Below, in pieces: positions 1,282 through 24,000 of a DNA stretch of 24,000 nt. Every line of letters begins with the position of its first letter. Position 1 is the first letter of the stretch. Where the stretch lies: assembly GCA_002457195.1 (NCBI GenBank), contig NTJU01000010.1, positions 3,890 through 27,889 of the forward strand, read 5' to 3'. The notes under the pieces were generated by a model. The model saw only the letters and a program-made list of their open reading frames with translations, did no database searches and was not told the DNA's origin. Origin of the DNA: Marine Group II euryarchaeote MED-G33. GTDB lineage: Archaea > Thermoplasmatota > Poseidoniia > Poseidoniales > Thalassarchaeaceae. Made by a program: the position numbers and the translations under genes.

Positions 1282-1285
1282 CTCA

Positions 1286-4499: not shown

Positions 4500-4534
4500 A
4501 AGTATAGACAGAAATACAAATTGGAGTGATTGTA

Positions 4535-9253: not shown

Positions 9254-10109
9254 AATTGCTACAATCTCAACCAAGAGTAATTATCGGGCTCAAGTGACTA
9301 GACTGAATTTGATTCTTGACGAACACATTCGCTTGATTCAAGAATCGGTGACGGATAAACATGCACGAGATGCCAAACGCAGCATCCGACAAGCTCGACA
9401 AGATATAGACGAACTCAAGACCCAAGTCGGGCGAATGCACCGCTCGATTGGGATGCTGCATACAATTATTCGGGAACGATCGACGACTGAAACGGAACTG
9501 GTTGATGTGCTGTTGACAATGAAAACAGCGGAGACCCTCATACTTCGAGGCGCATTCGATGAAGCATCACTCCAATTGGAGAGATTGGTCGAACACCTAC
9601 TCGTCAATAGTGCTGCATTGAACCCCTTCATTTTCTATGAATTTTGGATGGGTGTCGAAGCGCGTTGGGAAGCAGGATCCGAAGGTGGGCAACTCTTGGT
9701 CAGAGTTGAAAACACAAGCCCAGGACTCCTCCCTGGGTTTAATGTCAAGGCACCAGTACCTCCAAATTGGCGCTCATCTCCACCATCTCAGTCCATCATG
9801 GCTCTCGACCCCGGCCAATCCTGTGACCTGATCTTCAATATCACCCCTTCAGCAATGGCAGCCATTAGGGAAGTGGGGGCACCAGGGAGCCTCCAAGAAA
9901 AATTGTCAATTCAGACCGGTTACAATCTGACTCAAGAAGGCCTCACAATCAATTGCAGGGTTGAGAATAAAACAGGAGAAACCATGACTGAAGTTTTGGT
10001 GACACCTTGGATTCCCCCTGGGTGGAAAACAAACTCTTGGCCATTCATTCGAACGCTAGAACCAAATCAGGTTGAATTCGTCGAAATTAACCTTGATTTG
10101 GCCAAATAA
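9246..10109 (+). CDS. hypothetical protein with an N-terminal helical region and C-terminal NEW3/CARDB-like beta-sandwich; no signal peptide
   Basis: ATG 9246 lies 8 nt after GGAGGT (9232-9237) and overlaps the upstream stop (ATGTCTGA). ATG 9240 is an alternative start. The C-terminal half has LLVRVENTSPG, CRVENKTGETMTEVLVTPWIPPGWK and a NITPS sequon, echoing the domains of the preceding giant protein. No N-terminal hydrophobic segment is present. Confidence 0.6.
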   Translation: MSEIATISTKSNYRAQVTRLNLILDEHIRLIQESVTDKHARDAKRSIRQARQDIDELKTQVGRMHRSIGMLHTIIRERSTTETELVDVLLTMKTAETLILRGAFDEASLQLERLVEHLLVNSAALNPFIFYEFWMGVEARWEAGSEGGQLLVRVENTSPGLLPGFNVKAPVPPNWRSSPPSQSIMALDPGQSCDLIFNITPSAMAAIREVGAPGSLQEKLSIQTGYNLTQEGLTINCRVENKTGETMTEVLVTPWIPPGWKTNSWPFIRTLEPNQVEFVEINLDLAK

Positions 10110-10141: not shown

Positions 10142-10170
10142 AATAAAATACCTTCTTGGCTAAAAATAAA
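10142..10170 (+). promoter_or_regulatory. A/T-rich TATA-box candidates upstream of the archaellin gene
   Basis: AATAAAATA (10142-10150) and TAAAAATAAA (10161-10170) lie 20-47 nt upstream of ATG 10189, within a 79-nt intergenic spacer. The second would predict a nearly leaderless transcript. This rests on motif resemblance only. Confidence 0.3.
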
Positions 10171-10188
10171 CTACAGGAACGTGAACAA

Positions 10189-10767
10189 ATGCACCGGAAG
10201 AAACCCTACCTGAACGAGAACGAGAGTGGCGCCATCGGCATCGGTGCGATGATTATCTTCATCGCATTGATTTTGGTCGCTGCAGTAGCATCAACAATTA
10301 TCATCAAAACAGCTGAAGAACTTCAACAAAGAGCAGAAGCAACTGGTGATGACACACGAGATGAAATCAGTGGAAAAATCCAACTGGTTGGCGCGTACGT
10401 CAGCGATGATAACGCAGCTGGAAATGCAGCAGACGAAATTACACTGATCGTTCAACTCAGTGCTGGTTCAGATACCACCTTACTGGACAACATGGATTGG
10501 TTCATTGTTTGTGATGGTGGTGCAGGTACAGCAGATGTCAATACAGCTGACTTTGACGGTGTTGCAACAGACTTGGACGGAACACTTCTTGTAGCCGGTT
10601 CGTCAGTAGAGGCCGGTGAAACATTCCTGGTTCCAATTGACACCTCGACAAACTGTCAACCCGGTGTTGGTGATGAACAAGAACTCCGTGTAATCATCGA
10701 CGGTGGTGGCGAAACTTACGCCCAACTACACTACAACAGTATAGGCAATGGCGATACCATCGTATGA
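10189..10767 (+). CDS. arlB: archaellin (archaeal flagellin, FlaB/ArlB family)
   Basis: The class III signal peptide and archaellin N-terminal helix read MHRKKPYLNENESG|AIGIGAMIIFIALILVAAVASTIIIKTAEELQQRAEATG. The predicted prepilin-peptidase cut falls between G and A (10230/10231). The gene is followed by arlF-J. ATG 10189 gives a 14-aa leader, whereas the track's TTG 10156 gives an atypically long 25-aa leader. Confidence 0.9.
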   Translation: MHRKKPYLNENESGAIGIGAMIIFIALILVAAVASTIIIKTAEELQQRAEATGDDTRDEISGKIQLVGAYVSDDNAAGNAADEITLIVQLSAGSDTTLLDNMDWFIVCDGGAGTADVNTADFDGVATDLDGTLLVAGSSVEAGETFLVPIDTSTNCQPGVGDEQELRVIIDGGGETYAQLHYNSIGNGDTIV

Positions 10768-10780
10768 TACTATGATAACC

Positions 10781-10807
10781 CCTCTGCCCCCCTACGGGGG
10801 GCAGAGG
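10781..10807 (+). terminator. strong GC-rich hairpin immediately after the archaellin gene (terminator/attenuator)
   Basis: CCTCTGCCCCCC-TAC-GGGGGGCAGAGG is a perfect 12-bp stem, 14 nt after stop 10767. A TTTT tract follows at 10819-10822, just before the next gene's ATG at 10826. Confidence 0.6.
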
Positions 10808-10825
10808 ACATAGTGAGGTTTTGTC

Positions 10826-11650
10826 ATGGGGTTGCTGTCATTTCTCGGATTTGGTTCAAGCGATGATTACGACGATATCGACGAGGCCTCAGTGCAGCGT
10901 TTAGAATCGCTATCGGAGCAAGCCGTTGAGGCAGTGATGGTTCCTGAGGAATCCATCCCGATCGAAGAGGACGCCTGGACACTTGCCCCGTCGCCCGCCA
11001 GAGCACGTGTCGGCGCCAGCGGCTTGGAATCGGCAACAATCGAGAGTAAACCCACACCCGCTCCAACGACAATTGATACCAAAGCAATTGAGCAACGGCT
11101 AGATGACCGCTTCGATCGGATTGAAGCCACAATGAGTATCATGGATGCCCGCCTCACTCAATTACACGTTTCCGACAATTTGACACATGCTCTACCCTCG
11201 GATACATTGGTCACATTAGAATCCGAAGAGAATGAATCAGAGGAGCAAACAGACCCGTCATCAGATGAATCAGAACACTCGGAATCGCCCGTGGTTGAGA
11301 CAGTTAGTCTACTCGATTTGTATGAGGGCAGCGTCGCAGACATCAACCCGTTCTTGAATCGTCGTCGCGATTCACATTCGCAAACCCCATCAGTTTCTGT
11401 AAATGAAATCTCAGCGCTACTGCTTGATCATCTATCATCTGCTTCCGCCACGGCTTTCATCGAGAAAGCAAAATCCAGTGGCATGATTACCAAGAGCGAG
11501 TCTGCTGAATTGAGTGCCATTATTGGATTGGCTGATCCAGCCATCAATGATGGCGGTTCGGAACACTTACCACATCGTACGCTACTGATGTTCGGTTCGA
11601 TGGTGGAAGCCTGGCGAAGTTCTCAGTCCACCTCTGTCGAGGGGGCCTGA
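10826..11650 (+). CDS. acidic, probably largely disordered protein in the ArlC/D/E position of the operon; weak ArlD/E-like C-terminal motif
   Basis: ATG 10826 is preceded by GTGAGG (10813-10818). The stop lies 3 nt before the arlF start. The protein is very D/E/S-rich with an N-terminal MGLLSFLGFG. C-terminal FIEKAKSSGMITKSESAELSAIIGL resembles, from my memory of the consensus, the FlaD/E motif G-W-I-S-x6-L-x4-G-L. Confidence 0.6.
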   Translation: MGLLSFLGFGSSDDYDDIDEASVQRLESLSEQAVEAVMVPEESIPIEEDAWTLAPSPARARVGASGLESATIESKPTPAPTTIDTKAIEQRLDDRFDRIEATMSIMDARLTQLHVSDNLTHALPSDTLVTLESEENESEEQTDPSSDESEHSESPVVETVSLLDLYEGSVADINPFLNRRRDSHSQTPSVSVNEISALLLDHLSSASATAFIEKAKSSGMITKSESAELSAIIGLADPAINDGGSEHLPHRTLLMFGSMVEAWRSSQSTSVEGA

Positions 11651-11653
11651 GAT

Positions 11654-12055
11654 GTGGGCGGTTCTGTTAGCATCTCGGCTTTGATTGTGGGGACGGCACT
11701 CCTCGGAATCTTTGCACTTGCATCACTGTCACTCAACAATAGCGCAATAACAGCCTCAGAAGTCTTAGAAGAGAATCTAGGTGAACCAGAAATGCGCCTC
11801 ATCAATGCTTCCGAAGTAAATGGAACCATTCATCTCAACATCACCAATTCGGGGGATGAACCCATATCCTTTGACAAAACTTGGTTCAGTATCGATGGAT
11901 CCTCACCAATTCGGGCGAGTGATTACCATACACAAACCACTGTTCTATTCGCGGGTGAGATCCAACACATCCAGTTGACAGGTACTGGATTCACATCTCC
12001 AACCCGACTCTTTGTTGCAAGTATGGGCGGCCAATCAGGAGTATCATTTTCGTGA
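11654..12055 (+). CDS. arlF: archaellum stator/S-layer-binding protein ArlF (FlaF)
   Basis: GTG start. N-terminus MGGSVSISALIVGTALLGIFALA matches the FlaF-type MGFSVS + hydrophobic helix. It is followed by a small beta domain (IHLNITNSGDEPISFDKTWFSIDG). Size (133 aa) and position before arlG fit. Confidence 0.7.
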   Translation: MGGSVSISALIVGTALLGIFALASLSLNNSAITASEVLEENLGEPEMRLINASEVNGTIHLNITNSGDEPISFDKTWFSIDGSSPIRASDYHTQTTVLFAGEIQHIQLTGTGFTSPTRLFVASMGGQSGVSFS

Positions 12056-12064
12056 GGTGTGGCT

Positions 12065-12547
12065 ATGGCAGATGGTGGTGCAAGTGAATTGATTATGCTG
12101 ATTTCCGGCCTTTTGGTCGCAGGCATTGTCACCACCTTACTGGTTGCATCATGGGGGGGGCTGGCCAATTCGGTTGACACTGCTCAAAATCAGGCCGAAG
12201 CCAACTCCAAAACAAAGGCCGCATTGGCCAGCGATCCAATGCAAGTTTCTTGGGACCAACCATCTTGTAACCTATCTTTACACATTCAAAATACAGGCAC
12301 CCTTGAATTGTTTGATAGTGAAATAGGCATCATAGCAAATGGCACAGCATCAACAGTAAATCAAACACGATTGCTCGGAAATAGTTCTGTTTGGACTTCA
12401 GGAGAAGTGCTCGAATTACAGGTCTGCCCCGTTGGAATTACGATGTCAGCAGGACAGGAAATCACCGTGACTGTAATTGTGCGCAGCGAGCACTATCAAG
12501 GCATTTCCGGCCAGCATTCATTCAGCGAGGTGATTCGTCTTGTCTGA
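12065..12547 (+). CDS. arlG: archaellum protein ArlG (FlaG)
   Basis: ATG 12065 lies 5 nt after GAGGTG; GTG 12059 is an alternative start. GASELIMLISGLLVAGIVTTLLV matches the FlaG-type ASE-h-I-h-F-I-A helix. A beta domain follows (LHIQNTGTLELFDSEIGIIANG). The gene lies between arlF and arlH. Confidence 0.7.
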   Translation: MADGGASELIMLISGLLVAGIVTTLLVASWGGLANSVDTAQNQAEANSKTKAALASDPMQVSWDQPSCNLSLHIQNTGTLELFDSEIGIIANGTASTVNQTRLLGNSSVWTSGEVLELQVCPVGITMSAGQEITVTVIVRSEHYQGISGQHSFSEVIRLV

Positions 12548-13235
12548 TGATATTGGCCTTGCATTCGAATTGGAAACTGATAGCCTTTCAGACAGTTTGG
12601 GAAGATATCTTCCAAAGAGGTCACTATACATCGTGACGGGCCAGATTGGCTCTGGAAAGAGTTTGATTTCTCAGAGATTGGCCTTTGGACTGGTATCGAA
12701 CAACGTATCAACAACAGTTGCCACAACTGAATTGACAACACGAGGTTGGTTAGAACAAGTGAACAGTTTAGGATATCCGCTGGAGGATGCGGCCAACTCT
12801 GGTGATTTCACCCTACTATCACGTTTTGGAGTAATATCCGATGAAGTTGAAGGGAATGTCGGTATTGAGGATTTGTTGGCTTCTGAGGCATTGCAAACTG
12901 CAGAAATCTCAATTATTGACCGCGCCTCGATGATTCTTCAACACTACGAAGGCACTCCAGACCAACTTCTCAGCCGACTTCGCACATTTTGTTCTGAAGA
13001 ACGCTCACTCATGTTATTGCTGGATCCTGATGAGATTTCAGCAGAGATGTTGAGGACACTATCTTCCTCCGCCGAAGTGGTCCTCGAAATGAAAACTTCA
13101 GAGATTGGTGGTGGGCTATCACGAATATTAGCCGTAACCCGGTTTTTGCGAGCCGCCGGCCCCGTACAACCCAGAATAGGTTGGAGAGTTGAACCAACCA
13201 TGGGCTTCATTGTCGATATTACAGCAGTCAGTTGA
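12540..13235 (+). CDS. arlH: archaellum KaiC/RecA-like ATP-binding protein ArlH (FlaH)
   Basis: TTG start lies 7 nt after GAGGTG (12527-12532) and overlaps the arlG stop by 8 nt. Walker A is GQIGSGKS (12639-12662), preceded by LGRYLPKRSLYIVTG. Size is 231 aa and the gene lies directly before arlI. Confidence 0.8.
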   Translation: MSDDIGLAFELETDSLSDSLGRYLPKRSLYIVTGQIGSGKSLISQRLAFGLVSNNVSTTVATTELTTRGWLEQVNSLGYPLEDAANSGDFTLLSRFGVISDEVEGNVGIEDLLASEALQTAEISIIDRASMILQHYEGTPDQLLSRLRTFCSEERSLMLLLDPDEISAEMLRTLSSSAEVVLEMKTSEIGGGLSRILAVTRFLRAAGPVQPRIGWRVEPTMGFIVDITAVS

Positions 13236-13245
13236 GGGATAAAAC

Positions 13246-14961
13246 ATGGAAGCCGAAGAACTTGAATTCGCCCGAGGGGATCTCAACGGCGTCATGTCTC
13301 GGTACGACCATGTTAGGGAGTGGGTCGAGGATTTTGAAACCAAACATGGAACGCGTCCGATGTATTACGGTCCATTAGATCGCGCCGCTTCTAAACAGAA
13401 TCCACTCAATCTAATCTATCATCTCCGTGGCCCTCTTTTCGCCCATGTCTATCGCCCTCCTCAAGACGAAGAAGGAGGGGGGCAGACCCTATGGTTTGGA
13501 ATTGAACCCTATCTTACCGAAGAAGAAGAGATGATCAAGCAAATTCTTGTTGAGAGATTGCTCAAAGAGGCTCCAAACGCCCCATCATTTTCGACTGACG
13601 CAGAATTTGAATCAATGCTTGGGAATATGATGAAAAAGCACACAAAAATTTCCAACACACCCGTTGCTATTAGCGAAATAGTCACCCCAGTCAGAAGGGT
13701 CCTGGGTCTGAACGACCCACCTCTAAGCGTTACAGAACAACAGATGGAACGGCTACAATACACAGTCATTCGAGATTTGGTACGTTCAGGGCCACTGGAA
13801 ACACTGCTCTCCGATGAAATGCTTGAAGATATTCACGCAGTTGGATTACGCTATATCAGCATGGATCACAAAGTGTTTGGAATGGTCACATCAAACATCC
13901 GTTTCCGAGATCGGGAGATGCTTGAGAGATATCTCCGCGCGATGTCGGAACGTATTGGTCGCCCGGTATCCGATAGCAAACCGATTATTGACGGCGCTTT
14001 ATTGGATGGTAGTCGTATCAACATCATCTATTCAGACGACGTCTCGACATTGGGGTCTTCGTTCACCATCCGAAAATTCGCAGAGGAAACCATCTCAATT
14101 ACTCAATTGATTCAATGGAAAACCATGTCTGCCGAAGTCGCTGCCTATGTATGGCTGTGTTTGGAGAATGGAATGTCACTATTGGTATCTGGAGAAACCG
14201 CATCAGGGAAGACAACAACACTGAATGCAATTCTCCCGTTCATCGATCACAACGTGAAAATTTACTCGGCAGAAGACACCCCTGAAGTCAAAGTTCGACA
14301 CCGTTTGTGGCAACGCCTTGTCACGCGTGATTCCAAAAATGAAGATTCTAGAGTAGAGATGTTCGATCTTCTAAAGGCTGCATTGCGAAGTCGTCCACGC
14401 TACATCATCATTGGTGAAATTCGGGGTGCTGAAGGAGCGACAGCATTCCAAGCGATGCAAACAGGACACCCAGTCATCGCTACATTCCACGCATCATCGA
14501 TTGTCAAAATGATTCAACGATTTACGGGCGACCCGATCAATGTTCCAATGCGTTTCTTTGACAACTTGAACTTCGCAATTTTCCAAGAAGTAGTCGAAGC
14601 CCCAGGTGGAGGAATCGCTCGTAGAATCACAGGAATTGATGAAGTAATTGGATACAACAAACACGCAGATGGTGTTCTCACAAGAGGCATGTTCGATTGG
14701 GACCCTGTTCGCGATAAACACTACTTCAGAGGAATGTTTCAATCGCATCTTATGGAGAACAAGATGGCCGCTCTCATGGGCTTTGAAAATAAGCGTGATA
14801 TCTACGAAGAAATGGCTCGTCGCGCAGAAGCTCTACAGCGCATGGTAGATCGAAATATCACACATTATGATGACGTTTTCGACTTACTCGATATTTACTA
14901 CCAACAGGATTGGGAAGCGTTCTCAAACGCGATTGACATTTGGGTTCCAATTGAGGATTAG
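13246..14961 (+). CDS. arlI: archaellum motor/assembly ATPase ArlI (FlaI), type II/IV secretion ATPase superfamily
   Basis: Walker A is GETASGKT (14191-14214). Also present are LLDGSRINIIY..SFTIRKF, Walker B/Asp box RPRYIIIGEIRGAEG and His box TGHPVIATFHASS. Size is 571 aa. Confidence 0.95.
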   Translation: MEAEELEFARGDLNGVMSRYDHVREWVEDFETKHGTRPMYYGPLDRAASKQNPLNLIYHLRGPLFAHVYRPPQDEEGGGQTLWFGIEPYLTEEEEMIKQILVERLLKEAPNAPSFSTDAEFESMLGNMMKKHTKISNTPVAISEIVTPVRRVLGLNDPPLSVTEQQMERLQYTVIRDLVRSGPLETLLSDEMLEDIHAVGLRYISMDHKVFGMVTSNIRFRDREMLERYLRAMSERIGRPVSDSKPIIDGALLDGSRINIIYSDDVSTLGSSFTIRKFAEETISITQLIQWKTMSAEVAAYVWLCLENGMSLLVSGETASGKTTTLNAILPFIDHNVKIYSAEDTPEVKVRHRLWQRLVTRDSKNEDSRVEMFDLLKAALRSRPRYIIIGEIRGAEGATAFQAMQTGHPVIATFHASSIVKMIQRFTGDPINVPMRFFDNLNFAIFQEVVEAPGGGIARRITGIDEVIGYNKHADGVLTRGMFDWDPVRDKHYFRGMFQSHLMENKMAALMGFENKRDIYEEMARRAEALQRMVDRNITHYDDVFDLLDIYYQQDWEAFSNAIDIWVPIED

Positions 14962-14969
14962 GTGGGACG

Positions 14970-16763
14970 ATGGAGCGCCTTTCATTATACCAAATCGCCT
15001 TTCGAAGAATGGAAACACCACTTGGCGAATATGCAGTCAAAATTGTTCTACCAGCTTTCTTAGGCGGGGCTGCTGTTTCCTCACTTCTTTTCTTCACCCT
15101 AGGCTCATTTTTCATTGGATTCTCCGGAATTGTACTCCTGATTCTATTCCCCATTCTATCCACACTCGCGGCCATTTCTTGGCCAATTGTCCAGACCCTT
15201 CGTGAAGCGGTTTTAATCGAGAAGGAAATGCACATGTTCATCACACGGATGGGGATTCTTAGCATTGGTGAAGTGACATCACAATCAATGTTCGACATCC
15301 TTCGTCAAATGAGCGATTATGGGGCACTTGCCAAGGAAGTAAAATCGATTGAAACCTTGGTCGACAAGTGGCACACAAGTTTGCCTGAAGCATCACGCAT
15401 CATCGGCCGACAAAGCCCCTCACCTATTTGGGGAGATTTCCTTGATCGGATGGCATTTTCCGTTGAGGCAGGACAGCCCATTGATGAGTTCATGCGAGCA
15501 GAACAGAAGACCTTCGCAAAGGAATTTGACACACTATATGATACACGATTGGAATCCATTGACATGCTCAAAGAGATTTACATTTCATTGACCACTACAG
15601 GCATTTTTGGTCTTGTGGTTGCAGGTATCCATCTGGTATTGTTTGTAACCGATGATTATGGGTCATCCTTGGTCGGAATCTTGGCTAGAATCCGTTGGGT
15701 ACTCCTCGCTGCATTATTGTTCGTCATCATGCAAATTTCAATGCTTGTTGCATTCCGTTCGATTGTCCCCGATGATCCTGTGTTTGGTCGCCACGAGTTT
15801 GAAACTAGATTCAGAATTCGATCTAGACAAACTTGGCTTACCGCTGTCACAATGGGCCTCCCACTGCTAATATCGACAATTGTAGTAGCAGTATTGTATG
15901 GTGACATCATTGTTTCATCATGGAACAAATACGGCCTAGTCTTGGTCGCTTTCTTGTTCACGCCATTCCTCGTTCCAGGAATCACAGCATCTCGAGAAGA
16001 AAAGAGCATCATGCGTCGAGACGAATCATATCCGGGTTTTATTCGCGCACTCGGCGGAACGGCCCAAGCTCGTGCATCAGAACCATCTGCGACAATTAAG
16101 GCACTCCGAGGAATCGACTTTGGGTCACTCAACGAATCTATCGCCAGTCTGGAAAGTCGGCTGATGCTAAGGGTCGACTCTGAACGAAGTTGGGATTGGT
16201 TTTCTGCAGAAGTCAATTCCTCGATGGTTTCTCGATTCAACCGTATCTATTTGGAAGGTGCACAAGCCAGTGGAGAACCGGCCGCAGTCGCCGATCTCGT
16301 CAGTCAAAACACCACCAACCTCCTATCCCTTCGTCGTCGAAGGGCACTATCGGCCAGTACAATGAATGGCGTCGCATACGGTCTTCTGGTCGCAACCATC
16401 GTTTCCTTCAATATCGCAATCGCAGTTGTATTCCAACTGGGTTCCAACGTCGCGGGAGTCGCTCAAGGCATGGAGAACATGGATTTTGGTGAAATCACAA
16501 CCAATGCAGGTGGACTTGGTTTGCCAGTATTGGATGATGCAGGAGGTGTGGAATCGAATATTGCCTTGTTCAAAGTCGTCACATCGATCTTGATTGTATT
16601 CATGGTGTTCATTCTCTCTTCTGTTGCATCTCGATTGCGTGGGGGTGGAATCACACTAGCCCTCGGTCAAGTATCAACCATGATGTGGGTGGCTGCAATC
16701 ACCAGCGTACTCACAGGATCGATGCTGGAATCAACCCTTGGTGCATTCTTCACTTCGACATAG
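14970..16763 (+). CDS. arlJ: archaellum polytopic membrane platform protein ArlJ (FlaJ)
   Basis: The 597-aa protein has many hydrophobic helices. It contains two cytoplasmic T2SS-F-like segments (SPSPIWGDFLDRMAFSVEAGQPIDEFM and YPGFIRALGGTAQARASEPSATIKAL). It lies immediately downstream of arlI, with a 9-nt gap. Confidence 0.85.
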   Translation: MERLSLYQIAFRRMETPLGEYAVKIVLPAFLGGAAVSSLLFFTLGSFFIGFSGIVLLILFPILSTLAAISWPIVQTLREAVLIEKEMHMFITRMGILSIGEVTSQSMFDILRQMSDYGALAKEVKSIETLVDKWHTSLPEASRIIGRQSPSPIWGDFLDRMAFSVEAGQPIDEFMRAEQKTFAKEFDTLYDTRLESIDMLKEIYISLTTTGIFGLVVAGIHLVLFVTDDYGSSLVGILARIRWVLLAALLFVIMQISMLVAFRSIVPDDPVFGRHEFETRFRIRSRQTWLTAVTMGLPLLISTIVVAVLYGDIIVSSWNKYGLVLVAFLFTPFLVPGITASREEKSIMRRDESYPGFIRALGGTAQARASEPSATIKALRGIDFGSLNESIASLESRLMLRVDSERSWDWFSAEVNSSMVSRFNRIYLEGAQASGEPAAVADLVSQNTTNLLSLRRRRALSASTMNGVAYGLLVATIVSFNIAIAVVFQLGSNVAGVAQGMENMDFGEITTNAGGLGLPVLDDAGGVESNIALFKVVTSILIVFMVFILSSVASRLRGGGITLALGQVSTMMWVAAITSVLTGSMLESTLGAFFTST

Positions 16764-16788: not shown

Positions 16789-18162
16789 GTGATTGATGCG
16801 GCCGAATGCCTGCAATCGGTAAGGAGGTGGGCTACTTTGCAACAATTTTTCGATGAATTATCAGGTGTTCAAGATTGGGCTAACAACCTCCCAATTTATG
16901 GGAAAATCGCAATCTGTATAGGCCTCAGTCTAGCACTTTTCGGTTTTATGAAATTCGTTCTTCTCAAGAAGTTTGGAGAATTTGTCAACCAAACCAAGGT
17001 CGGTTGGGACAACGACTTGTTCCATCCACTTTCTTCACGCACCCTTGCATTCTGTGCAGTGTTGTGTATCAATGGTTCATTTGCTTGGCTTTCTCCAACT
17101 GCCATGGAAGCGATTTACCATTTTTTGAACGCGACATACATCCTCATCTTCACCAGTATGATTAGCAGCTCAATCCGAGTCATTACCCCGCCTTTCATGA
17201 CATGGATCAACACCAATAGTCAGGGTGTCGCAGTCACTGGCCGCAACCATTTTGTCAGTGGATTTTCCAGAATTCTAGTTTGGGCATTTGGTCTGTATTT
17301 GGTTTTGGATGAATTGCAATTGGAATTGATGGGACTACTCGCCTCGATGGCCGTATTCTCATTGATTGCCGGTTTGGCCTTGCAACAGACATTGGGTAAC
17401 ATTCTGAACTCGTTCTTGCTCGCAATGGACCGTCCATTCGATGTTGGAGACCGCATCCAGGTAGACGACATTGAAGGAAAGGTAGTTTCCACGGGCATTC
17501 TCTCCACCAAGGTTTTGACATGGTCCGAAGAACTGGTGATTATCCCCAACAACACGTTGGTCTCCAGCACGATTCTGAACAAAGCAAGAGGGGGCGGAGA
17601 TGGAGTCCCAAAGCGCATCAATTTGCTCATCGATGTCTCCGTTGCTTATGATGAAGATCCGCCCCACGTCAAACATGTTTTGAACCAAGTTGCGCAAAGT
17701 TGCCCATACACACTAGATACGCCGAAATCGCGAGCATTGATTATCGGCTTGGGCGATTATTCCATCGACTTCCGCTTGTACACATGGATTTCGGATTATT
17801 CAGATGAATGGCCAGCCCGTGATTGGATCATGCAGAAAATGACAGACCGATTTAGAGATGAAGGCATCATCATCCCATACCCGGTGAATATCGAACTCAA
17901 GTCGCAACCAGCTGGCACCTATGGGAAAGGCGGAAGCTATGAATTGAAGACTCGAAGAAAATCAGCCAGACAGCAAACTGCTCGCCTGCAAATGGCTCGA
18001 GCCGATGAGGTTCATCGAGAAGAAAGAGAGACAATTAAGTCTGAAATTGAGTGGCTGGAAAGCCAAATCTCCGATACCTCATTGGGCGCTCGAGAGAAGG
18101 ATAAGATTCGGGCTGAAATTACAGCACTCGCCTCTTCGTTAGACATGTTTGATGGGGATTGA
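16789..18162 (+). CDS. MscS-family small-conductance mechanosensitive channel with a C-terminal coiled-coil extension
   Basis: The pore helix and beta-domain signature is LASMAVFSLIAGLALQQTLGNILNSFLLAMDRPFDVGDRIQVDDIEGKVVSTGILSTKVLTWSEELVIIPNNTLVSSTILN. The start is uncertain: either GTG 16789, or in-frame TTG 16837, which lies 9 nt after a strong AGGAGG (16822-16827) and downstream of a TATAAT-like box at 16764-16769. Confidence 0.9.
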   Translation: MIDAAECLQSVRRWATLQQFFDELSGVQDWANNLPIYGKIAICIGLSLALFGFMKFVLLKKFGEFVNQTKVGWDNDLFHPLSSRTLAFCAVLCINGSFAWLSPTAMEAIYHFLNATYILIFTSMISSSIRVITPPFMTWINTNSQGVAVTGRNHFVSGFSRILVWAFGLYLVLDELQLELMGLLASMAVFSLIAGLALQQTLGNILNSFLLAMDRPFDVGDRIQVDDIEGKVVSTGILSTKVLTWSEELVIIPNNTLVSSTILNKARGGGDGVPKRINLLIDVSVAYDEDPPHVKHVLNQVAQSCPYTLDTPKSRALIIGLGDYSIDFRLYTWISDYSDEWPARDWIMQKMTDRFRDEGIIIPYPVNIELKSQPAGTYGKGGSYELKTRRKSARQQTARLQMARADEVHREERETIKSEIEWLESQISDTSLGAREKDKIRAEITALASSLDMFDGD

Positions 18163-18167
18163 GGTTC

Positions 18168-18191
18168 CACCGCCGTAGGCGGTGTTCTTTT
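18168..18191 (+). terminator. GC hairpin plus T-rich tract after the MscS gene
   Basis: CACCGCC-GTA-GGCGGTG is a perfect 7-bp stem (18168-18184) beginning 6 nt after the stop. TTCTTTT follows directly. Confidence 0.45.
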
Positions 18192-18194
18192 AAT
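18188..18194 (+). promoter_or_regulatory. TATA-box candidate for the giant RCC1-repeat gene (would give a leaderless mRNA)
   Basis: TTTTAAT is centred about 25 nt upstream of ATG 18216. No SD-like motif precedes that ATG, unlike most genes in the window. Confidence 0.3.
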
Positions 18195-18215
18195 CGCCAC
18201 ATCTTCCGCGAAAGC

Positions 18216-21200
18216 ATGACAACCACTAGGGTTTGCCAATCATTGACATTGACAGGTTTGCTGATACTTGTTTCCTGCCTTGCGATTTTCAGCGGACAGA
18301 TTTCTGAGAACGAACAATTGGATATCGAGAAAATCAGCGAATCTAGCTCAGCAAATTCTCCAGGTTTCCAATCCGGATCAATCTTCACTCATGATTCATT
18401 GGCAGCCGGTTCTGAGCACACATGCGCCATTCTCGATGATGGTAACATGTCCTGTTGGGGCGCCAATTCGTTCGGGCAACTGGGCACCGGCTCTACAACA
18501 GCATCTTCCAGCCCCGTTGATGTTTCCTTCGTGAATCCAGGAGGTGTTACAACCCTCTACCCCGTCAGCGTTTCGTCAAGTCAATACCACACTTGTGCAG
18601 TATTGAATGATGGTTCAATACAGTGTTGGGGTGACAATGCATACGGCCAATTGGGCGATGGGACAAACACTTCCCAATCATCACCAACCGGTGTTGATCT
18701 TGGAGAAAACAACAGTGCCGTTATGATTGGAGTGGGGAAGACTCACACCTGTGCAGTCCTTCAAGACGCAAGCGTTTCTTGCTGGGGCTACAACATCCAT
18801 GGCCAGATCGGAGATGGAACAAACACACAGCGAAATGCTCCTACAAGTGTCGATTTGGGGCAAGACCGCAGTGCGGTTGCAATTTCCTTGGGTGAATCAC
18901 ATACCTGTGCACTTCTCGATGACCAGTCTCTGAAATGCTGGGGGCACAATAACGAAGGCCAACTCGGAGATGAAACCACCACTAACGCAAATTCACCAGT
19001 CACAGTCAGTCTAGGTGGCGATATACCCGTTGCAGTGACTACAGGTGAACAACATACTTGTGCGGTGCTCTCCGATGAAACAGTCTCGTGTTGGGGTTGG
19101 AATGATCGCGGGCAGTTGGGGGACGGTACACTCACCAGCCAATCTTCGCCGACGTCGATTACGATTGACACAGGAGTCACAACCCTCACGACCGGAGATC
19201 GCCACACATGTGCCATTTTGGACAATGGAACTGCTATGTGCTGGGGCAACAATATCTTCGGACAATTGGGCAATGGAGCCAATTCCAATTCACAAATTCC
19301 AGAACATGTCGATTCACTTTCCAATGTTGTTGGAATGGTGGCAGGAGACCACCATACCTGCGCGGTCATCAACGATGGCTCTGTGCACTGCTGGGGTGGA
19401 AATAACGAAGGCCAACACGGGGATGGAACCACTTCTAGCACAAATTCACCAGGCTCTGCAATTGGTTCCCTGACCTTGGCATTGGATGATCGAGATCGTG
19501 ACAATGATGGCACGCTCGATATTTACGACACACACATCGCCAACGATGGGGATGGAGACGGCATCCCTACACCGGATGATCAGTTCCCAGATAACCCGGC
19601 TCGTTCAGAGTCATGTAATGCTGGATTCTACGGTCGATATTCGTGCCAAGAAGCCGATGCAGGGTATTACGCTCCAGTTGGAGCCATTATCCAACTTCGA
19701 TGCGATGCCGGTACCTATCAGCCAGACACAGGTCAAGCAAGTTGCATTGACTCTGATGCCGGTCACTACGTTCCAGAAGAAGGTGCAACCAGTCAAGAAT
19801 CTTGCACAATCGGGCAATATCAGGACAATACCGGCCAATCGTCTTGTGATGATGCCGCACCAGGACATTTCGTAGATACAGAAAATGCCACCTCACAAAT
19901 TGAATGTGGAATTGGAACCTACCAACCGAATTCTGCACAATCGTCCTGTATTGACGCATCTCCAGGGTATTATGTCGATAGTAACGCTTCAGCCAGCCAA
20001 ACAGCTTGTCTGGCAGGTTCATACAATCCAGGCACTGCATCGAACAATAATTCTGCGTGTCTGCTCGCAGATCTTGGGCATTATGTGAGCCAACCAGGCC
20101 GATCCTCTCAGACCACCGCCTCCCCAGGATATTATGTCGATACAACAGGGGCGACCACTCAGACACCTTGCCTGGCTGGAACATACAACCCGGACACTGG
20201 TTCAAACAGTAGTTCAGCCTGCATGGATGCTGATTTAGGGCACTATGTATCTCAGCCAGGCCGTTCATCACAGACACCAGCCTCGCCGGGATACTACGTC
20301 GACACAACGGCGGCGACCACCCAGACCCCCTGCTTGGCAGGAACCTACAATCCCAACTCTACATCTACAGATTCATCTGCTTGCATGGATGCAGATTTAG
20401 GATACTATGTGTCTCAGCCAGGCCGCTCATCACAAACTCCTGCCTCACCAGGATACTATGTTGACACAACGGCAGCGACCACACAACTTGCCTGCTCTCC
20501 AGGTACATACAATCCGGCAAGCGCCTCTACCACCGCATCTGCTTGTTTGGATGCAGATCCTGGTTACTACGTGAGCCAATCTGGACGTTCGTCCCAAACA
20601 CCCGCCTCTCCTGGTTACTACGTAGATACTGCAGCGGCCACCTCACAGACCCCCTGCTTGGTAGGGACTTACAATCCAGTATCTGCATCTGACGATGCAT
20701 CTGCCTGTCTAGATGCAGATCTAGGTTACTACGTGAGCCAATCAGGGCGTTCATCACAGACACCCGCCTCACCAGGATACTATGTTGATTCGACAGGTGC
20801 AACAGGCCAATCACCCTGTTTGGTTGGAACCTACAATCCAACCAGTGCAGCCACCTCATCAGCCGCTTGTTTGTCTGCTGACGCCGGATACAAAGCACCC
20901 AATATCGGCATGGGCCAGCAGATTGCATGTTCCCCAGGAACATACCAACCTGATACGGGACAAACAGATTGCTTGGATACCGACCCAGGGCACTATGCGA
21001 GCGGCTCAGGGAACTCCGATCAGACACCCTGCCAGGAAGGCACATACATCAATTCCACACAAACTACTGCTTGCACACCAGCACCACAGAATACCTATGC
21101 AAATGGAACGGGGAATACCGACCCTTCACCTTGTCCACTTGGTACAGCCACCATTGGTCAAAGCACCACATCTTCTGATGGTTGCCTAACCGATTCAGAT

Positions 21201-22697
21201 GAAGATGGTACGCCGAACGAAACCGACAACGATGACGATAACGATGGCGTGAATGACGCCAACGATGCCTTCCCCACCAACCCGTCAGAAACTGTCGACA
21301 CCGACGGTGATGGTTCGGGCGACAACGCCGATTTAGATGATGACGGTGATGGCTGGGAAGACACCTCAGACGCCTTCCCCCTCGATGATAGTGAATGGCT
21401 CGACACAGACGCTGACAACATTGGTAACAATGTAGACACCGATGATGATGGTGACGGTTGGAGTGATGCTGATGAGGCCACTTGTGGAAGCGACTCCTTG
21501 GATGAATCAAATCAACCACTAGACACCGACTCCGACTCAACATGCGATGTCGTTGATGATGATGATGATGGCGACACAATCCCAGACTCAAGCGATATAT
21601 GCCCGGGTCACGATGATACATTGGACTGGGATGATGACGGTATCCCTGATGGTTGTGAAAATGATTTGGATATTGATTGGGACGGTGTCATGAACACTGA
21701 AGATCAGTGCCCAGAAACACCGCTTATCGAGAAAAATCAAGTTGATGAATATGGTTGCGGCCCCTCAGAGAGTGGTGATGATGATGCCGACGGCGTCCCC
21801 AATGCGTTAGACACCTGCGCAGATACCACATCTGATGAAATCCCTAATTCAGAGGGCTGTGGAGCTTCGCAAAGAGACACAGATGGTGATGGCTGGACAG
21901 ACTCCGATGAACAGAGATGTGGCAACGATTATCTCGATGGCTCCGATGTACCAGATTCCTCCTGTGCTCTAAGTGATAACTCAAACACAGAAAACAATTC
22001 GAGTTCATTCAGTTGTTGGATCATCCTCATTCTGCTTCTGATCCTCCTTCTTGCTGTATTGCTGGTCATATCCTCCCGTCGAGACGAAGAGGGTAACTTC
22101 ACTTTCAATATCACGAAAATTACCACGGTCCTAAGTAAGGAGCCAGAAGATGATGATCCATTCGCGAACCTCGAAGGTGAAGTATCTCCGAAGGAATCGA
22201 GTGTGGATGATTGGGACGACGACTCAACCCCATTCGCCGTGGATACATCGGAAGCTGATGCGAAAATCGCAGCGATGGACGCCAAGATGGCAGAGATGGA
22301 TGCCAAGATGGCAGAGATGACTGAAAAGGAAGCACAACTCGCTCGAATCGCATCCAAGGCAGAGGCGATCGACTTCGCCACAATTGGAACCGCTTCCGTT
22401 GATGACAAGAACGACTTGCGAAAAATCAAGGGGATTGGACCTTTCATCGAAGAGAAGCTGAATGCCCTTGGGATCTTCAAATTCTCTCAATTGGCGAATA
22501 TGACGCCAGAAATTGAAGAACAAGTCAACGAAGCCATCGAATTCTTCCCAGGAAGAATCAAGCGAGACAAGTGGGCCAATCAGGCGACTGAATTGGATTC
22601 TGAAGAGGCTGAAGATGAATTGCCCGACATGTCAGAATTGGTTTCCGACAATGATAAGGGTGAAGACGAAACATTCGAAGATGTGGATTGGGAGTGA
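18216..22697 (+). CDS. giant single-pass mosaic surface protein: signal peptide, 7-blade RCC1-like propeller, Cys/Tyr (ephrin-receptor-like) repeats, Asp-rich calcium-binding-type repeats, TM helix, cytoplasmic tail with a helix-hairpin-helix-like module
   Basis: ATG 18216 gives MTTTRVCQSLTLTGLLILVSCLAIFSG, a signal peptide with a lipobox-like LVSC. The protein has seven HTCA-x-L-x-D-x-S/T-x-x-CWG-x-N-x-x-GQLGDG repeats. It has C-x2-G-x-Y...C...G-x-Y-V...SQ repeats and D-x-D-x-D-G repeats. The TM helix is FSCWIILILLLILLLAVLLVISSRR (about 22008-22080). An acidic tail of about 205 aa follows. The track's TTG 18159 start overlaps the MscS stop and the hairpin. Confidence 0.85.
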   Translation: MTTTRVCQSLTLTGLLILVSCLAIFSGQISENEQLDIEKISESSSANSPGFQSGSIFTHDSLAAGSEHTCAILDDGNMSCWGANSFGQLGTGSTTASSSPVDVSFVNPGGVTTLYPVSVSSSQYHTCAVLNDGSIQCWGDNAYGQLGDGTNTSQSSPTGVDLGENNSAVMIGVGKTHTCAVLQDASVSCWGYNIHGQIGDGTNTQRNAPTSVDLGQDRSAVAISLGESHTCALLDDQSLKCWGHNNEGQLGDETTTNANSPVTVSLGGDIPVAVTTGEQHTCAVLSDETVSCWGWNDRGQLGDGTLTSQSSPTSITIDTGVTTLTTGDRHTCAILDNGTAMCWGNNIFGQLGNGANSNSQIPEHVDSLSNVVGMVAGDHHTCAVINDGSVHCWGGNNEGQHGDGTTSSTNSPGSAIGSLTLALDDRDRDNDGTLDIYDTHIANDGDGDGIPTPDDQFPDNPARSESCNAGFYGRYSCQEADAGYYAPVGAIIQLRCDAGTYQPDTGQASCIDSDAGHYVPEEGATSQESCTIGQYQDNTGQSSCDDAAPGHFVDTENATSQIECGIGTYQPNSAQSSCIDASPGYYVDSNASASQTACLAGSYNPGTASNNNSACLLADLGHYVSQPGRSSQTTASPGYYVDTTGATTQTPCLAGTYNPDTGSNSSSACMDADLGHYVSQPGRSSQTPASPGYYVDTTAATTQTPCLAGTYNPNSTSTDSSACMDADLGYYVSQPGRSSQTPASPGYYVDTTAATTQLACSPGTYNPASASTTASACLDADPGYYVSQSGRSSQTPASPGYYVDTAAATSQTPCLVGTYNPVSASDDASACLDADLGYYVSQSGRSSQTPASPGYYVDSTGATGQSPCLVGTYNPTSAATSSAACLSADAGYKAPNIGMGQQIACSPGTYQPDTGQTDCLDTDPGHYASGSGNSDQTPCQEGTYINSTQTTACTPAPQNTYANGTGNTDPSPCPLGTATIGQSTTSSDGCLTDSDEDGTPNETDNDDDNDGVNDANDAFPTNPSETVDTDGDGSGDNADLDDDGDGWEDTSDAFPLDDSEWLDTDADNIGNNVDTDDDGDGWSDADEATCGSDSLDESNQPLDTDSDSTCDVVDDDDDGDTIPDSSDICPGHDDTLDWDDDGIPDGCENDLDIDWDGVMNTEDQCPETPLIEKNQVDEYGCGPSESGDDDADGVPNALDTCADTTSDEIPNSEGCGASQRDTDGDGWTDSDEQRCGNDYLDGSDVPDSSCALSDNSNTENNSSSFSCWIILILLLILLLAVLLVISSRRDEEGNFTFNITKITTVLSKEPEDDDPFANLEGEVSPKESSVDDWDDDSTPFAVDTSEADAKIAAMDAKMAEMDAKMAEMTEKEAQLARIASKAEAIDFATIGTASVDDKNDLRKIKGIGPFIEEKLNALGIFKFSQLANMTPEIEEQVNEAIEFFPGRIKRDKWANQATELDSEEAEDELPDMSELVSDNDKGEDETFEDVDWE
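18370..19470 (+). repeat. seven tandem RCC1-type beta-propeller blades (about 50 aa each, protein-level repeat)
   Basis: The blades are marked by EHTCAILDDGNMSCWGANSFGQLGTG, YHTCAVLNDGSIQCWGDNAYGQLGDG, THTCAVLQDASVSCWGYNIHGQIGDG, SHTCALLDDQSLKCWGHNNEGQLGDE, QHTCAVLSDETVSCWGWNDRGQLGDG, RHTCAILDNGTAMCWGNNIFGQLGNG and HHTCAVINDGSVHCWGGNNEGQHGDG. Confidence 0.85.
20007..20816 (+). repeat. five in-frame tandem repeats of 162 nt (54 aa), highly similar at DNA level
   Basis: The unit-initial Cys codons fall at 20007, 20169, 20331, 20493 and 20655, with the next at 20817, an exact 162-nt period. The unit consensus is CLAGTYNP-x5-SSACMDADLGYYVSQPGRSSQTPASPGYYVDTTAATTQTP. Related but more diverged 34-aa units flank it (about 19612-20006 and 20817-21180). 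Confidence 0.85.
21192..21966 (+). other. Asp-rich thrombospondin-type-3-like / calcium-binding repeat region
   Basis: D-x-D-x-D-G-x-x-D recurs (DSDEDGTPNETD, DTDGDGSGDNADLDDDGDGWEDTSDAFPLD, DTDDDGDGWSDADE, DDDDDGDTIPDSSDICP, DWDDDGIPDGCEND, GDDDADGVPNALDTC, DTDGDGWTDSDE) with interspersed Cys. A shorter patch of the same kind lies at about 19483-19610. Confidence 0.6.
22401..22595 (+). other. cytoplasmic helix-hairpin-helix-like module at the C-terminus of the giant protein
   Basis: DDKNDLRKIKGIGPFIEEKLNALGIFKFSQLANMTPEIEEQVNEAIEFFPGRIKRDKWANQATEL matches, from memory, the conserved D-D-L-x-x-I-x-G-I-G-P-x-x-E-x-x-L-N-x-x-G-I-x-x-F-x-Q-I-A ... F-x-G-R-I-x-R-D-x-W-x-x-Q-A module. That module is found as a C-terminal extension on some bacterial NuoE and ribosomal protein L21 sequences. 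Confidence 0.55.
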
Positions 22698-22701
22698 TAT
22701 T

Positions 22702-24000
22702 ATGGAAAGCATTACACAATTAAGTAAAACCGACAGCAGCAAACAACGAGGGACACTTATGCAGAGCAGAGCAATCCTACTGATGGCCATCATGGTCTTG
22801 GCGTCATTATCGCCATTGGCAGCAACCGAATTAGATGCGAGCGTTGATTCAAACGACACGGCTGGACGAACAGGAGCCATATCTCACATCCAATATTTCG
22901 GAACATGGACAGGACAGAATGCATTGGTAAACCAGACAGCAGCCACTCCAATCAGCCCAATGACAATTCCATTGAGTGCCACTCCTGACGGTTATTCAAT
23001 TTCGAGTGACACTATTGTTCCGCCAGGAACCAATTCGCAAGATTGGTGGACGATGAACGACGTCTCATTTACAGACATAGGATCGGGAGCTAACAATCCA
23101 ATCTACCTCAACGGTAACGCAAATTGGATTTCTCAAGGCAAGGCGTATGGCGCCGTCGAATTGGGCGGCTCTTCAGGCGATTATATCAATTCAACAACTT
23201 GTGCGACACACAGCAATTCACAGGGGAACGGACAAGGTATCGCTGGTTGGTTTAAGCCCAACTCCCTCGGTGGTCAATTGTTCAGTCGAACATTTGATCG
23301 GACCGATAGTTACGGAGGGTTTGATGGCCTCAACCTAAGCATCACTGAAGACGGCTATGTTCAAGCAAAGATGTACTGGGCAAGTCAAAATGAAACCGAC
23401 ACTGCTGTGGATTGGACGTTCAACGTTACCACAGCAAATATGCAGACACCGATTGAAGAAGGAGAGTGGAATTTCATCACCGTATCGTATTGGAGACACG
23501 GCTGGAACTTCAACATGAGAGTATACGTGGACAACGGAACAAGCGCCAGTCTTAGCAATCAACTGTCCTTCTACGGTGGCTCGCTCACACCTTCCACCTC
23601 GACTATGCTGACATGGGGTAATTCCGAATGCCGATTTGGACAAGGGTTTGACGGGGCAATCGATGAATTACGCGCTTTCAAAGACATGGCTCCATGGAGC
23701 AATAACCAAGCCTATTCCGACTGGAAGACTGCAGGCCCAATCCCTCTTCCGACCGGACTATCCTTTGATCCTGATACAGGAGTAATTGATGGCACCCCTC
23801 AAATTCCGTGGGCCCCAACCGATTACAACATATCAGTCATGTCAGGGGATAGTAGTGTGTACACTATCTTGACACTCGAGGTCGTCGAACCGGATCTACC
23901 TTCGATTACATATGGTTCCAACGACAACTTCTACCTCACTACTGGGGACGAGGAATCAATCTCACCACCACCAAACATGGGTGGAAGCGATGCCTTCTGG
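22702..24000 (+). CDS. 3'-truncated secreted protein with a LamG/concanavalin-A-like lectin-fold domain followed by a putative Ig/cadherin-like domain
   Basis: This ORF is absent from the supplied track because it has no stop in the window. I translated it by eye and the frame is open from 22702 to 24000. ATG 22702 lies 5 nt after GGGAGTGA; ATG 22759 is an alternative start. The signal peptide is MQSRAILLMAIMVLASLSPLAA. LamG-like motifs are GAVELGGSSGDYINS, GIAGWFKPNSLGGQLFSRT, EGEWNFITVSYW, MRVYVDNG and FDGAIDELRAFKDMAPWS. LPTGLSFDPDTGVIDGTPQ then follows, typical of putative Ig/dystroglycan-cadherin-like domains. Confidence 0.8.
   Translation, partial: MESITQLSKTDSSKQRGTLMQSRAILLMAIMVLASLSPLAATELDASVDSNDTAGRTGAISHIQYFGTWTGQNALVNQTAATPISPMTIPLSATPDGYSISSDTIVPPGTNSQDWWTMNDVSFTDIGSGANNPIYLNGNANWISQGKAYGAVELGGSSGDYINSTTCATHSNSQGNGQGIAGWFKPNSLGGQLFSRTFDRTDSYGGFDGLNLSITEDGYVQAKMYWASQNETDTAVDWTFNVTTANMQTPIEEGEWNFITVSYWRHGWNFNMRVYVDNGTSASLSNQLSFYGGSLTPSTSTMLTWGNSECRFGQGFDGAIDELRAFKDMAPWSNNQAYSDWKTAGPIPLPTGLSFDPDTGVIDGTPQIPWAPTDYNISVMSGDSSVYTILTLEVVEPDLPSITYGSNDNFYLTTGDEESISPPPNMGGSDAFW

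Follow-up and report, generated by a model that had tools for sequence, protein, structure and literature searches.

A PhaH-type helix-hairpin-helix module on the predicted cytoplasmic tail of a giant surface protein in marine group II archaea

Within a stretch of 24,000 nucleotides from the marine group II (MGII) euryarchaeote MED-G33 (contig NTJU01000010.1; hereafter the window, whose numbering is used throughout), we examined a single gene on the forward strand, running from an ATG at 18216 to a stop codon at 22697 and encoding 1,493 aa. Its sequence identifies this target as a type I giant membrane protein conserved in marine group II archaea (Thalassarchaeaceae/MGIIb), composed in order of a signal peptide, seven RCC1 blades, Ephrin_rec_like repeats, TSP3 repeats, one transmembrane (TM) helix, and a 205-aa tail that carries a helix-hairpin-helix (HhH) module homologous to that of Caulobacter PhaH. 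Tentatively, and with somewhat less than even confidence, we propose that it is an adhesin-like surface protein whose coil would oligomerise the cytoplasmic end and whose HhH module would tether nucleoid DNA, as PhaH does for granules. The domain types, the MGII “thrombospondin” adhesins, and the archaellum operon next to the gene were already known (PMC6461757); what would be new here is a PhaH-type nucleoid tether placed on a transmembrane surface protein. The parts of the target are as follows.

18216..18296, + strand: signal peptide, aa 1-27 with its core at aa 6-24 (Kyte-Doolittle 2.11), kept in close orthologues
18393..19460, + strand: seven-blade RCC1-type beta-propeller, predicted extracellular, aa ~60-415 (Pfam and motifs)
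19614..21185, + strand: Cys/Gly/Tyr repeats of the Ephrin_rec_like (GCC2_GCC3) type, aa 467-990 (Pfam PF07699)
21192..21965, + strand: Asp-rich TSP3-like repeats of calcium-binding type with paired Cys, aa 993-1250
22014..22076, + strand: single transmembrane helix followed by SSRRDEE, aa 1267-1287 (Kyte-Doolittle 3.61; AlphaFold helix)
22077..22247, + strand: disordered acidic linker, predicted cytoplasmic, aa 1288-1344 (pLDDT, the predicted local distance difference test, below 50; net charge -12)
22248..22367, + strand: Met-rich heptad coiled-coil helix with (MDAKMAE) repeats, aa 1345-1384 (long helix in AlphaFold)
22368..22616, + strand: COG3743 / PhaH / Urf1-type helix-hairpin-helix module, aa 1385-1467 (NCBIfam, PDB sequences, AlphaFold)
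22617..22694, + strand: acidic C-terminal extension ending ETFEDVDWE, aa 1468-1493 (26 aa; net charge -11)

The module belongs by homology to the COG3743/PhaH type, and all of its NCBIfam matches fall at the C-terminal ends of the models. Residues 1347-1460 of the target align with positions 121-231 of the 234-position PhaH model (NF045508, E 1.1e-9), and the C-terminal ends of the alphaproteobacterial NuoE (9e-19), S2, and L21 models are matched as well. Among PDB sequences, the module matched 9wqv_a (Urf1/protein-3h, 2.9e-12) and 8yy9_O (protein-O, 9.5e-12), while direct matches to Pfam HhH families (Cdd1, HHH_5, IMS_HHH) were weak, with E-values of 0.005-0.06. Modelled alone with AlphaFold, the module reached a pLDDT of 92 and a predicted template modelling score (pTM) of 0.84. 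Foldseek searches against the PDB with the TM-plus-tail model and with the module alone returned no significant match; the best neighbours of the module, below significance, were the DNA-binding (HhH)2 domains of RadA/Rad51 (59 residues, 2.0-2.7 Å), followed, again without significance, by NusA, Pol theta, and Pol iota. An earlier reading of this DNA made from the sequence alone (the first-pass annotation) had described a folded, HhH-like tail, and the confident model, the weak Pfam matches, and the stronger NCBIfam and PDB-sequence matches all agree with it. Basic residues are conserved on the flanks of both hairpins (IKGIGP and PGRxKRD), and the 61-aa module core has a net charge of +1, near neutral within an acidic proteome, compared to an average of -1 over 328 family cores. 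Based on its homology to PhaH, the module of the target may be a putative non-specific DNA-binding domain.

An exhaustive HMMER search (E <= 1e-3) recovered 8,755 representatives of this module family, in which the module is usually C-terminal and in some proteins occurs in up to 26 tandem copies. Sources label its members “FEN-1-like 5' DNA nuclease, H3TH domain” (COG3743) or “helix-hairpin-helix domain-containing protein”. Halomonas PhaC2 also has a COG3743 domain, which its authors read as a sign of DNA binding. The longest arrays, with 12-26 tandem copies, were seen in the bacterial proteins P0241 (3,033 aa), P0242 (3,115 aa, Verrucomicrobiota), P0243, and P0250. They bring to mind topoisomerase V, an enzyme with repeated HhH domains whose stacking raises DNA affinity.

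Hydropathy analysis (Kyte-Doolittle, 19-residue window) delineated just two hydrophobic segments in the target, at aa 6-24 (2.11) and aa 1267-1285 (3.61), the second of which lies at the same position in all orthologues. Because the protein has a signal peptide, a single TM helix followed by RR, and a one-sided distribution of Cys residues (53 before the TM helix, 0 in the 205-aa tail), the tail is predicted to be cytoplasmic; the resulting type I topology, with the N-terminus outside and the C-terminus inside, follows from hydropathy and these rules. At the position of the RR flank, paralogues carry RKR or GRKRSD. Both the TM helix preceding RRDEE and the cytoplasmic tail of ~205 aa had been anticipated in the first-pass annotation, and the hydropathy peak, the AlphaFold helix, the signal peptide, the RR flank, and the Cys-free tail bear them out.

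Modelling of the TM helix plus tail placed a ~57-aa disordered linker, a 40-residue helix, and a compact helical module after the membrane helix, so that the tail runs from a disordered acidic linker through a Met-rich heptad coil and a helical module of ~95 aa to an acidic end. The heptad register of the coil is clean (a = I, M, M; d = M, M, M, L), and its MDAKMAE stretch is encoded by a 21-nt tandem repeat (2.4 copies, 22269-22319). The terminal TF[ED]DVDWE is kept in close orthologues of the target, whereas paralogous tails are without it and end in basic residues of the KNKK type; this acidic end of the target clade could represent an autoinhibitory or docking peptide.

Comparison of the target with distant orthologues, region by region, showed that the coil (62-78% identity) and the module (64-73%) are the best-conserved parts of the protein; a conserved C-terminal module had been noted in the first-pass annotation. 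The RCC1 propeller (48-56%) and the Cys repeats (44-56%) come next, then the linker (16-40%) and the acidic end (4-19%).

On the extracellular side, the RCC1-like propeller comprises seven tandem repeats of ~50 aa above Pfam gathering thresholds, with a WD40_RLD (PF25390) match of 2.8e-74 (251 bits vs. a cut-off of 150), seven stretches each for RCC1 (PF00415, 187 bits) and RCC1_2 (PF13540, 196 bits), and seven CWGxNxxGQxG motifs between aa 80 and 392. The following region belongs to Ephrin_rec_like (PF07699, 5.8e-20, 71.3 bits vs. a cut-off of 23.1, five stretches) and contains 12 CxxGxY units and 14 xGxY[VA] half-units across aa 467-990, among them five 54-aa units that form a 162-nt tandem repeat at 20067-20782 (4.4 copies, 73% matches; Tandem Repeats Finder). 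The Asp-rich region, with a net charge of -81, is assigned to thrombospondin type 3 repeats at the sequence level by its DxDxDG motifs (13 in the protein, 11 within aa 993-1232 and 2 at aa 425-449) and by a marginal TSP_3 match (PF02412, 3e-6, 27.3 bits vs. a cut-off of 25); TSP3_bac (PF18884) scored 1.8e-3 and 18.5 bits, under its cut-off of 25, and the NCBIfam model MtsC (thrombospondin-3 type) matched aa 1134-1232 at 5.5e-10. These repeats are predicted to be of the calcium-binding type. The signal peptide and complete seven-blade propeller, the Cys/Gly/Tyr repeats (put there at approximately 14), and the DxDxDG-rich region listed in the first-pass annotation were therefore all recovered, and ORF, Pfam matches, motif counts, and hydropathy agree that one protein holds every segment.

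The accompanying suggestion of a eukaryote-like receptor did not hold up. RCC1, Ephrin_rec_like, and TSP3 repeats are common in prokaryotic surface proteins (6,461 matches at E<=1e-10), Pfam and NCBIfam scans of the tail detected no kinase or other enzymatic or signalling domain, and the catalytic or signalling domains that would mark an Eph-like receptor, such as kinase, SAM, or PDZ-binding, were absent from the Pfam and NCBIfam matches. The resemblance is superficial.

Since repeat-rich genes invite errors, we considered whether assembly or gene calling had fused unrelated pieces inside the repeats, or whether the tail is a remnant that has lost its function. Assemblies do break in giant genes rich in repeats, many of the copies in public databases are incomplete, and frameshifts split tails from ectodomains in some long-read contigs. 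However, full-length orthologues (50-90% identity) with the same architecture were found in at least 10 independent assemblies of Poseidoniales (MGIIb), which argues against the chimera envisaged as a refutation in the first-pass annotation. They include P0121 (1,500 aa, 80% identity, identical domain order) as well as P0122 (67%), P0123 (55%), and P0126, all with the domain order of the target. The architecture also occurs in six GTDB species representatives (loci L010-L013, L018, and L026), and the closest other loci by tail module are from Thalassarchaeaceae. Collapse or chimerism within the repeats is likewise unlikely because the five Cys-repeat units of 54 aa share just 73% identity in their DNA, and the tail coil and module, being the most conserved regions, do not look like a remnant. 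An assembly artefact is thus essentially excluded. As to the start codon, an in-frame TTG lies upstream at 18159, but it is an unlikely start because it would overlap the stop codon of the preceding gene and because the signal peptide begins at the ATG.

Only one member of the module family, Caulobacter PhaH, was found to have been studied experimentally in the literature, and the primary study is reportedly that of Salinas et al. 2023. According to two secondary accounts (the review PMC13052382, and PMC12678847), PhaH binds polyhydroxybutyrate (PHB) granules through its N-terminus and DNA, without sequence specificity, through its C-terminal HhH domain; the granules are thereby distributed along the nucleoid, and phaH deletion disorganises them. 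PhaH and the target share a homologous HhH (H3TH) module at the C-terminus, preceded by a linker and an N-terminal cargo part, and in PhaH, as described there, the module holds the cargo on the nucleoid. It differs in being a soluble bacterial protein of 234 aa with a PHB granule as cargo, whereas the cargo of the target would be a 1,290-aa extracellular and transmembrane archaeal part, and a heptad coil and an acidic extension at the C-terminus are further features of the target. The target is not itself a whole-length PhaH, scoring 38.8 bits vs. a cut-off of 250 with only the C-terminal 110 model positions matching.

The same module (E 3e-12 to 9e-19) is found in the Urf1/protein-O/protein-3h subunit of the Rhodobacterales light-harvesting 1-reaction centre (LH1-RC) complex, which consists of an N-terminal TM hairpin, a flexible loop, and a C-terminal module (8YY9 chain O, 9WQV chain a), and in alphaproteobacterial NuoE, S2, and L21. 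These proteins share with the target a membrane anchor or large-complex subunit, a flexible linker, and a C-terminal module on the cytoplasmic side, but they are bacterial, are small TM-hairpin anchors or soluble subunits, and have no extracellular domain. Another membrane-anchored HhH protein is ComEA of competent bacteria, small and outward-facing, whose (HhH)2 domain catches incoming DNA. Like the target, ComEA joins one membrane anchor through a flexible linker to an HhH-type domain of the non-specific DNA-binding kind, whereas the target module is predicted to be cytoplasmic and sits on a giant ectodomain, and ComEA models in Pfam and NCBIfam gave no sequence match to the target. Myxococcus MtsC (NF047638), a surface cohesion protein, has similar Asp-rich thrombospondin type 3 repeats; only this repeat region matches (38.7 bits vs. 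a cut-off of 350), and MtsC ends in a MYXO-CTERM sorting signal, unlike the TM helix and cytoplasmic domain of the target. The closest precedent by organism is the proposal that TSP3-repeat surface proteins of MGII, together with a chemotaxis-free archaellum operon, serve in particle attachment (Rinke et al. 2019, PMC6461757). The target adjoins that very operon, but the proposal concerned gene presence only and did not include the RCC1-Ephrin_rec_like-TSP3-TM architecture, the cytoplasmic tail, or the HhH module.

The module is by no means confined to the target. Many giants of Poseidoniales and marine group III (MGIII) have predicted cytoplasmic tails of 200-640 aa with one to three module copies, and in at least 35 of 80 genome loci we observed an Asp-rich ectodomain, one TM helix, and a 200-640-aa tail with one or two modules, in ORFs that can exceed 3,400 aa. 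Long K/A/E-rich helical spacers often precede the modules in these tails. Many other membrane proteins with the tail module, which the first-pass annotation had suggested looking for in the same genome, are thus found across these lineages, while the accompanying view of a large cytoplasmic domain as exceptional has to be given up, all the more as the giant encoded next to the target has a cytoplasmic EF-hand. The module also forms the C-terminus of NuoI-like 2x[4Fe-4S], HEAT-repeat, and TM-plus-EF-hand proteins of MGII/MGIII. Loci with such fusions encode proteins of 452-462 aa (L050, L054, L063, L064, L073, L077, L080, L085), 319-330 aa (L024, L025, L029, L051, L082), and 342 aa (L046, L086), and the NuoI-like fusion of MGII/MGIII parallels the NuoE-module fusions of alphaproteobacteria.

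Conversely, RCC1 + Ephrin_rec_like relatives of the target (P0124-P0240) carry other cytoplasmic tails: a 19-aa tail (...DWHQEDSLFD), tails of 75-120 aa ending GYEW..G.KWYR...W.KW (WW-like), basic tails (...KMQRRYKY), and long acidic ones. Tails therefore appear to be swapped on a common scaffold. Many tails of these giants have acidic-aromatic ends (DVDWE, DDLFD, DEWFE).

Small Poseidoniales proteins with two or three modules initially resembled a separate soluble family, a candidate that was rejected because in L003-L005 they are continuous with giants across frameshifts. When read through, these small ORFs join He_PIG/TSP3 ectodomains in the order ectodomain, Leu-rich TM helix, GRKRSD, small beta domain, long K/A/E-rich helix, and modules. 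The split-off tails (~4800-6780 in L003 and L004; ~3300-4662 in L005), which are annotated as “predicted flap endonuclease-1-like 5' DNA nuclease”, were separated from their ectodomains by frameshifts or by internal start calls in the K/A/E-rich spacers. For annotation, this means that many small MGII “FEN-1-like 5' DNA nuclease” ORFs are split-off tails of giant surface genes.

The target stands between a channel gene and a second giant, downstream of the archaellum genes, in the following arrangement.

10156..16763, + strand: archaellum operon encoding ArlB, a 274-aa protein, an ArlF-like protein, ArlG, ArlH, ArlI, and ArlJ (Pfam, NCBIfam)
16789..18162, + strand: MscS-family channel gene directly upstream of the target (Pfam MS_channel_2nd and MS_channel_3rd; NCBIfam MscS)
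18168..18195, + strand: intergenic hairpin, T-run, and TATA-like TTTTAATC, with TTTTAATC ~27 nt before the target ATG
22681..24000, + strand, running off the window: second giant surface-protein gene, its start overlapping the target stop codon

NCBIfam scores for the archaellum proteins are 5.6e-201 (ArlI), 1.6e-113 (ArlJ), 8e-43 (ArlH), and 8.3e-19 (ArlG); homologues of ArlC/D/E or ArlX were not recognised between 10156 and 16763, and the target itself has no Arl match in NCBIfam or Pfam, being tied to the archaellum by synteny only. The MscS gene adjoins the target in all orthologue loci, and the order ArlF/G-ArlH-ArlI-ArlJ-MscS-target-second giant was retained wherever the flank of an orthologue locus was long enough to tell, down to ~50% ectodomain identity. 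A conserved C-terminal coiled-coil extension of ~65 aa, ending ...MFD, is common to these MscS proteins. Their paralogues (39-54% identity) lie on the same strand, -70 to +100 nt from module-tailed giants, in nine further genome loci. Among 80 metagenome loci seeded with MscS, a giant ORF that is module-tailed or Asp-rich ends just upstream of the channel in ~25-29, and an RCC1 giant lies just downstream in ~12, so that a giant surface gene flanks the channel in roughly half, while ~40% are without a giant neighbour. These observations on MscS and its neighbours draw on L014, L015, L019, L021, L022, L027, L032, L034, L036, L081, and L088-L167. Several independent origins of this adjacency were considered, an idea weakened by a flank in common: L107 and L125 read giant-MscS-Top1B and L001 reads MscS-target-giant-Top1B, and this shared Top1B flank makes one ancestral neighbourhood likely.

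The hairpin between MscS and the target, CACCGCC-GTA-GGCGGTG, is GC-rich and stable (-20.9 kcal/mol, z = -4.25) and is conserved in five closer orthologue loci, L011 keeping the stem with a different loop. The conserved hairpin, T-run, and TATA-like box point to transcription ending after MscS and to a near-leaderless promoter that serves the target on its own, which makes strict co-transcription of the two genes doubtful. Downstream, the seemingly empty region after 22697 holds the second giant, whose reading frame stays open from 22681 to the end of the window and encodes a signal peptide and a He_PIG match (7.9e-6). Its full-length orthologues (1,700-1,790 aa) have TSP3 repeats, a TM helix, RKR, a predicted cytoplasmic EF-hand (DKDGDGxISDEEW), and an acidic ...DDDLFD end; they were observed in L001 (14436-19583), L009-L013, and L018.

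Taking the protein as a whole, the RCC1 propeller would be displayed on a stalk of disulfide-rich Ephrin_rec_like and calcium-binding-type TSP3 repeats, an ectodomain for which an adhesin-like or cell-envelope role seems probable. Inside the cell, the flexible acidic linker and the Met-rich coil, the latter by probable oligomerisation, would present the HhH module, and by homology the module may tether the cytoplasmic end to nucleoid DNA or another nucleic acid. The tail would then act as a passive anchoring or positioning device and not as an enzymatic signalling domain, and the lineage-wide C-terminal cassette would fit a general attachment of large membrane assemblies, including a NuoI-like complex I subunit, to the nucleoid. 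Between the signalling and the anchoring suggested in the first-pass annotation, anchoring to an intracellular structure is better supported by homology, PhaH being reported to tether granules to the nucleoid, and the avidity of tandem arrays of up to 26 modules counts for DNA binding. Weighing against nucleoid tethering are the Pfam HhH matches of the target, which are below gathering thresholds, and the net charges of the whole tail (-33), the extended module (aa 1385-1467, -8), and the C-terminal extension (-11), since such acidity would work against contact with DNA unless its role is regulatory. NusA AR1/AR2 exemplify acidic (HhH)2 domains whose ligands are proteins and not DNA, and the module is invisible or cleaved in both cryo-EM structures, whose authors call its function obscure. 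Adhesion is suggested by the domain types and by the literature on MGII “thrombospondin” genes, and the tethering mechanism by homology to one PhaH experiment, known here from secondary accounts, with charge data that are equivocal. An alternative is protein docking or clustering, in which the coil would oligomerise while the module binds a shared cytoplasmic partner or itself instead of DNA, gathering the giants, and complex I via NuoI, into membrane patches or a cortical lattice. The acidic tail and extension, the conserved terminal TF[ED]DVDWE (typical of a short docking motif), the very different cargoes (surface giants, NuoI, HEAT, EF-hand, bacterial NuoE, S2, L21, and Urf1), the multivalent arrays of up to 26 copies, and the presence of NusA among the best structural neighbours would all fit. 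We nevertheless consider docking unlikely, since the sole experimentally studied family member is reported to bind DNA, conserved basic residues stand at both hairpins, and no candidate partner was identified.

Tethering of the nucleoid also has to be weighed against a role in mechanosensing, in which the target would be an extracellular tether passing force through its TM helix and coil to the adjacent MscS channel; the signal could also reach the archaellum motor, and the EF-hand tail of the second giant would read ion influx. Gene order makes this attractive: the arl operon-MscS-target-second giant series persists down to 50% identity, MscS paralogues sit beside module-tailed giants in nine further genome loci, metagenome loci add giants upstream (~25-29/80) or RCC1 giants downstream (~12/80), all these channels share the ~65-aa C-terminal coiled coil, the second giant has its cytoplasmic EF-hand, and MGII are without chemotaxis genes (PMC6461757). 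Yet a single ancestral neighbourhood, passed on with its gene order, may account for the linkage, as the Top1B flank suggests, ~40% of such MscS loci have no giant neighbour, and the terminator-like hairpin and TATA-like box point to separate transcription; any physical interaction is hypothetical. On balance mechanosensing appears improbable. Equally speculative, and in our view a poor prospect, is its broadest form, in which giants, coiled-coil MscS, and HhH or EF-hand tails would make up a previously unrecognised archaeal attachment- or force-sensing apparatus beside the archaellum operon. Were this improbable scheme correct, contact with particles or algal cells would be coupled to ion flux, to the motility motor, or directly to the nucleoid, and an organism without chemotaxis genes would have a functional counterpart of tethered mechanotransduction channels or of the linkers that join envelope and chromatin in eukaryotes.

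Poseidoniales are the most abundant archaea of surface oceans and are uncultured, and to our knowledge almost nothing is known of their cell envelope and particle interaction. If the tails do bind the nucleoid, these tiny cells would couple their surface, and also complex I, physically to the chromosome, using a module that serves organelle positioning in bacteria. Such binding would also provide a very large, uncharacterised family (8,755 representatives), which decorates NuoE, S2, L21, and photosynthetic-complex subunits, with a concrete function that can be tested. The literature we searched contained no description of the target architecture, which the first-pass annotation had allowed might already be catalogued, nor of archaeal surface giants with HhH modules in their cytoplasmic tails, of a fusion between the module and NuoI, or of the MscS-giant linkage.

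Rfam and tRNA scans of the window gave no matches. The remaining features lie on the far flank of the archaellum operon.

2-832, frame 2: ORF entering from the window start and ending in a Cys-containing beta-rich domain
1190-4438: large secreted protein of 1,082 aa, with no Pfam match
4526-9253: large secreted protein of 1,575 aa, with NPCBM_assoc, FixG_C, and HYDIN-like Ig domains

Given these giant secreted genes, the arl operon is embedded in a giant surface-protein gene cluster. The 274-aa protein of the operon (10826-11650) and a 289-aa NPCBM_assoc protein (9240-10109) are conserved in orthologous loci.

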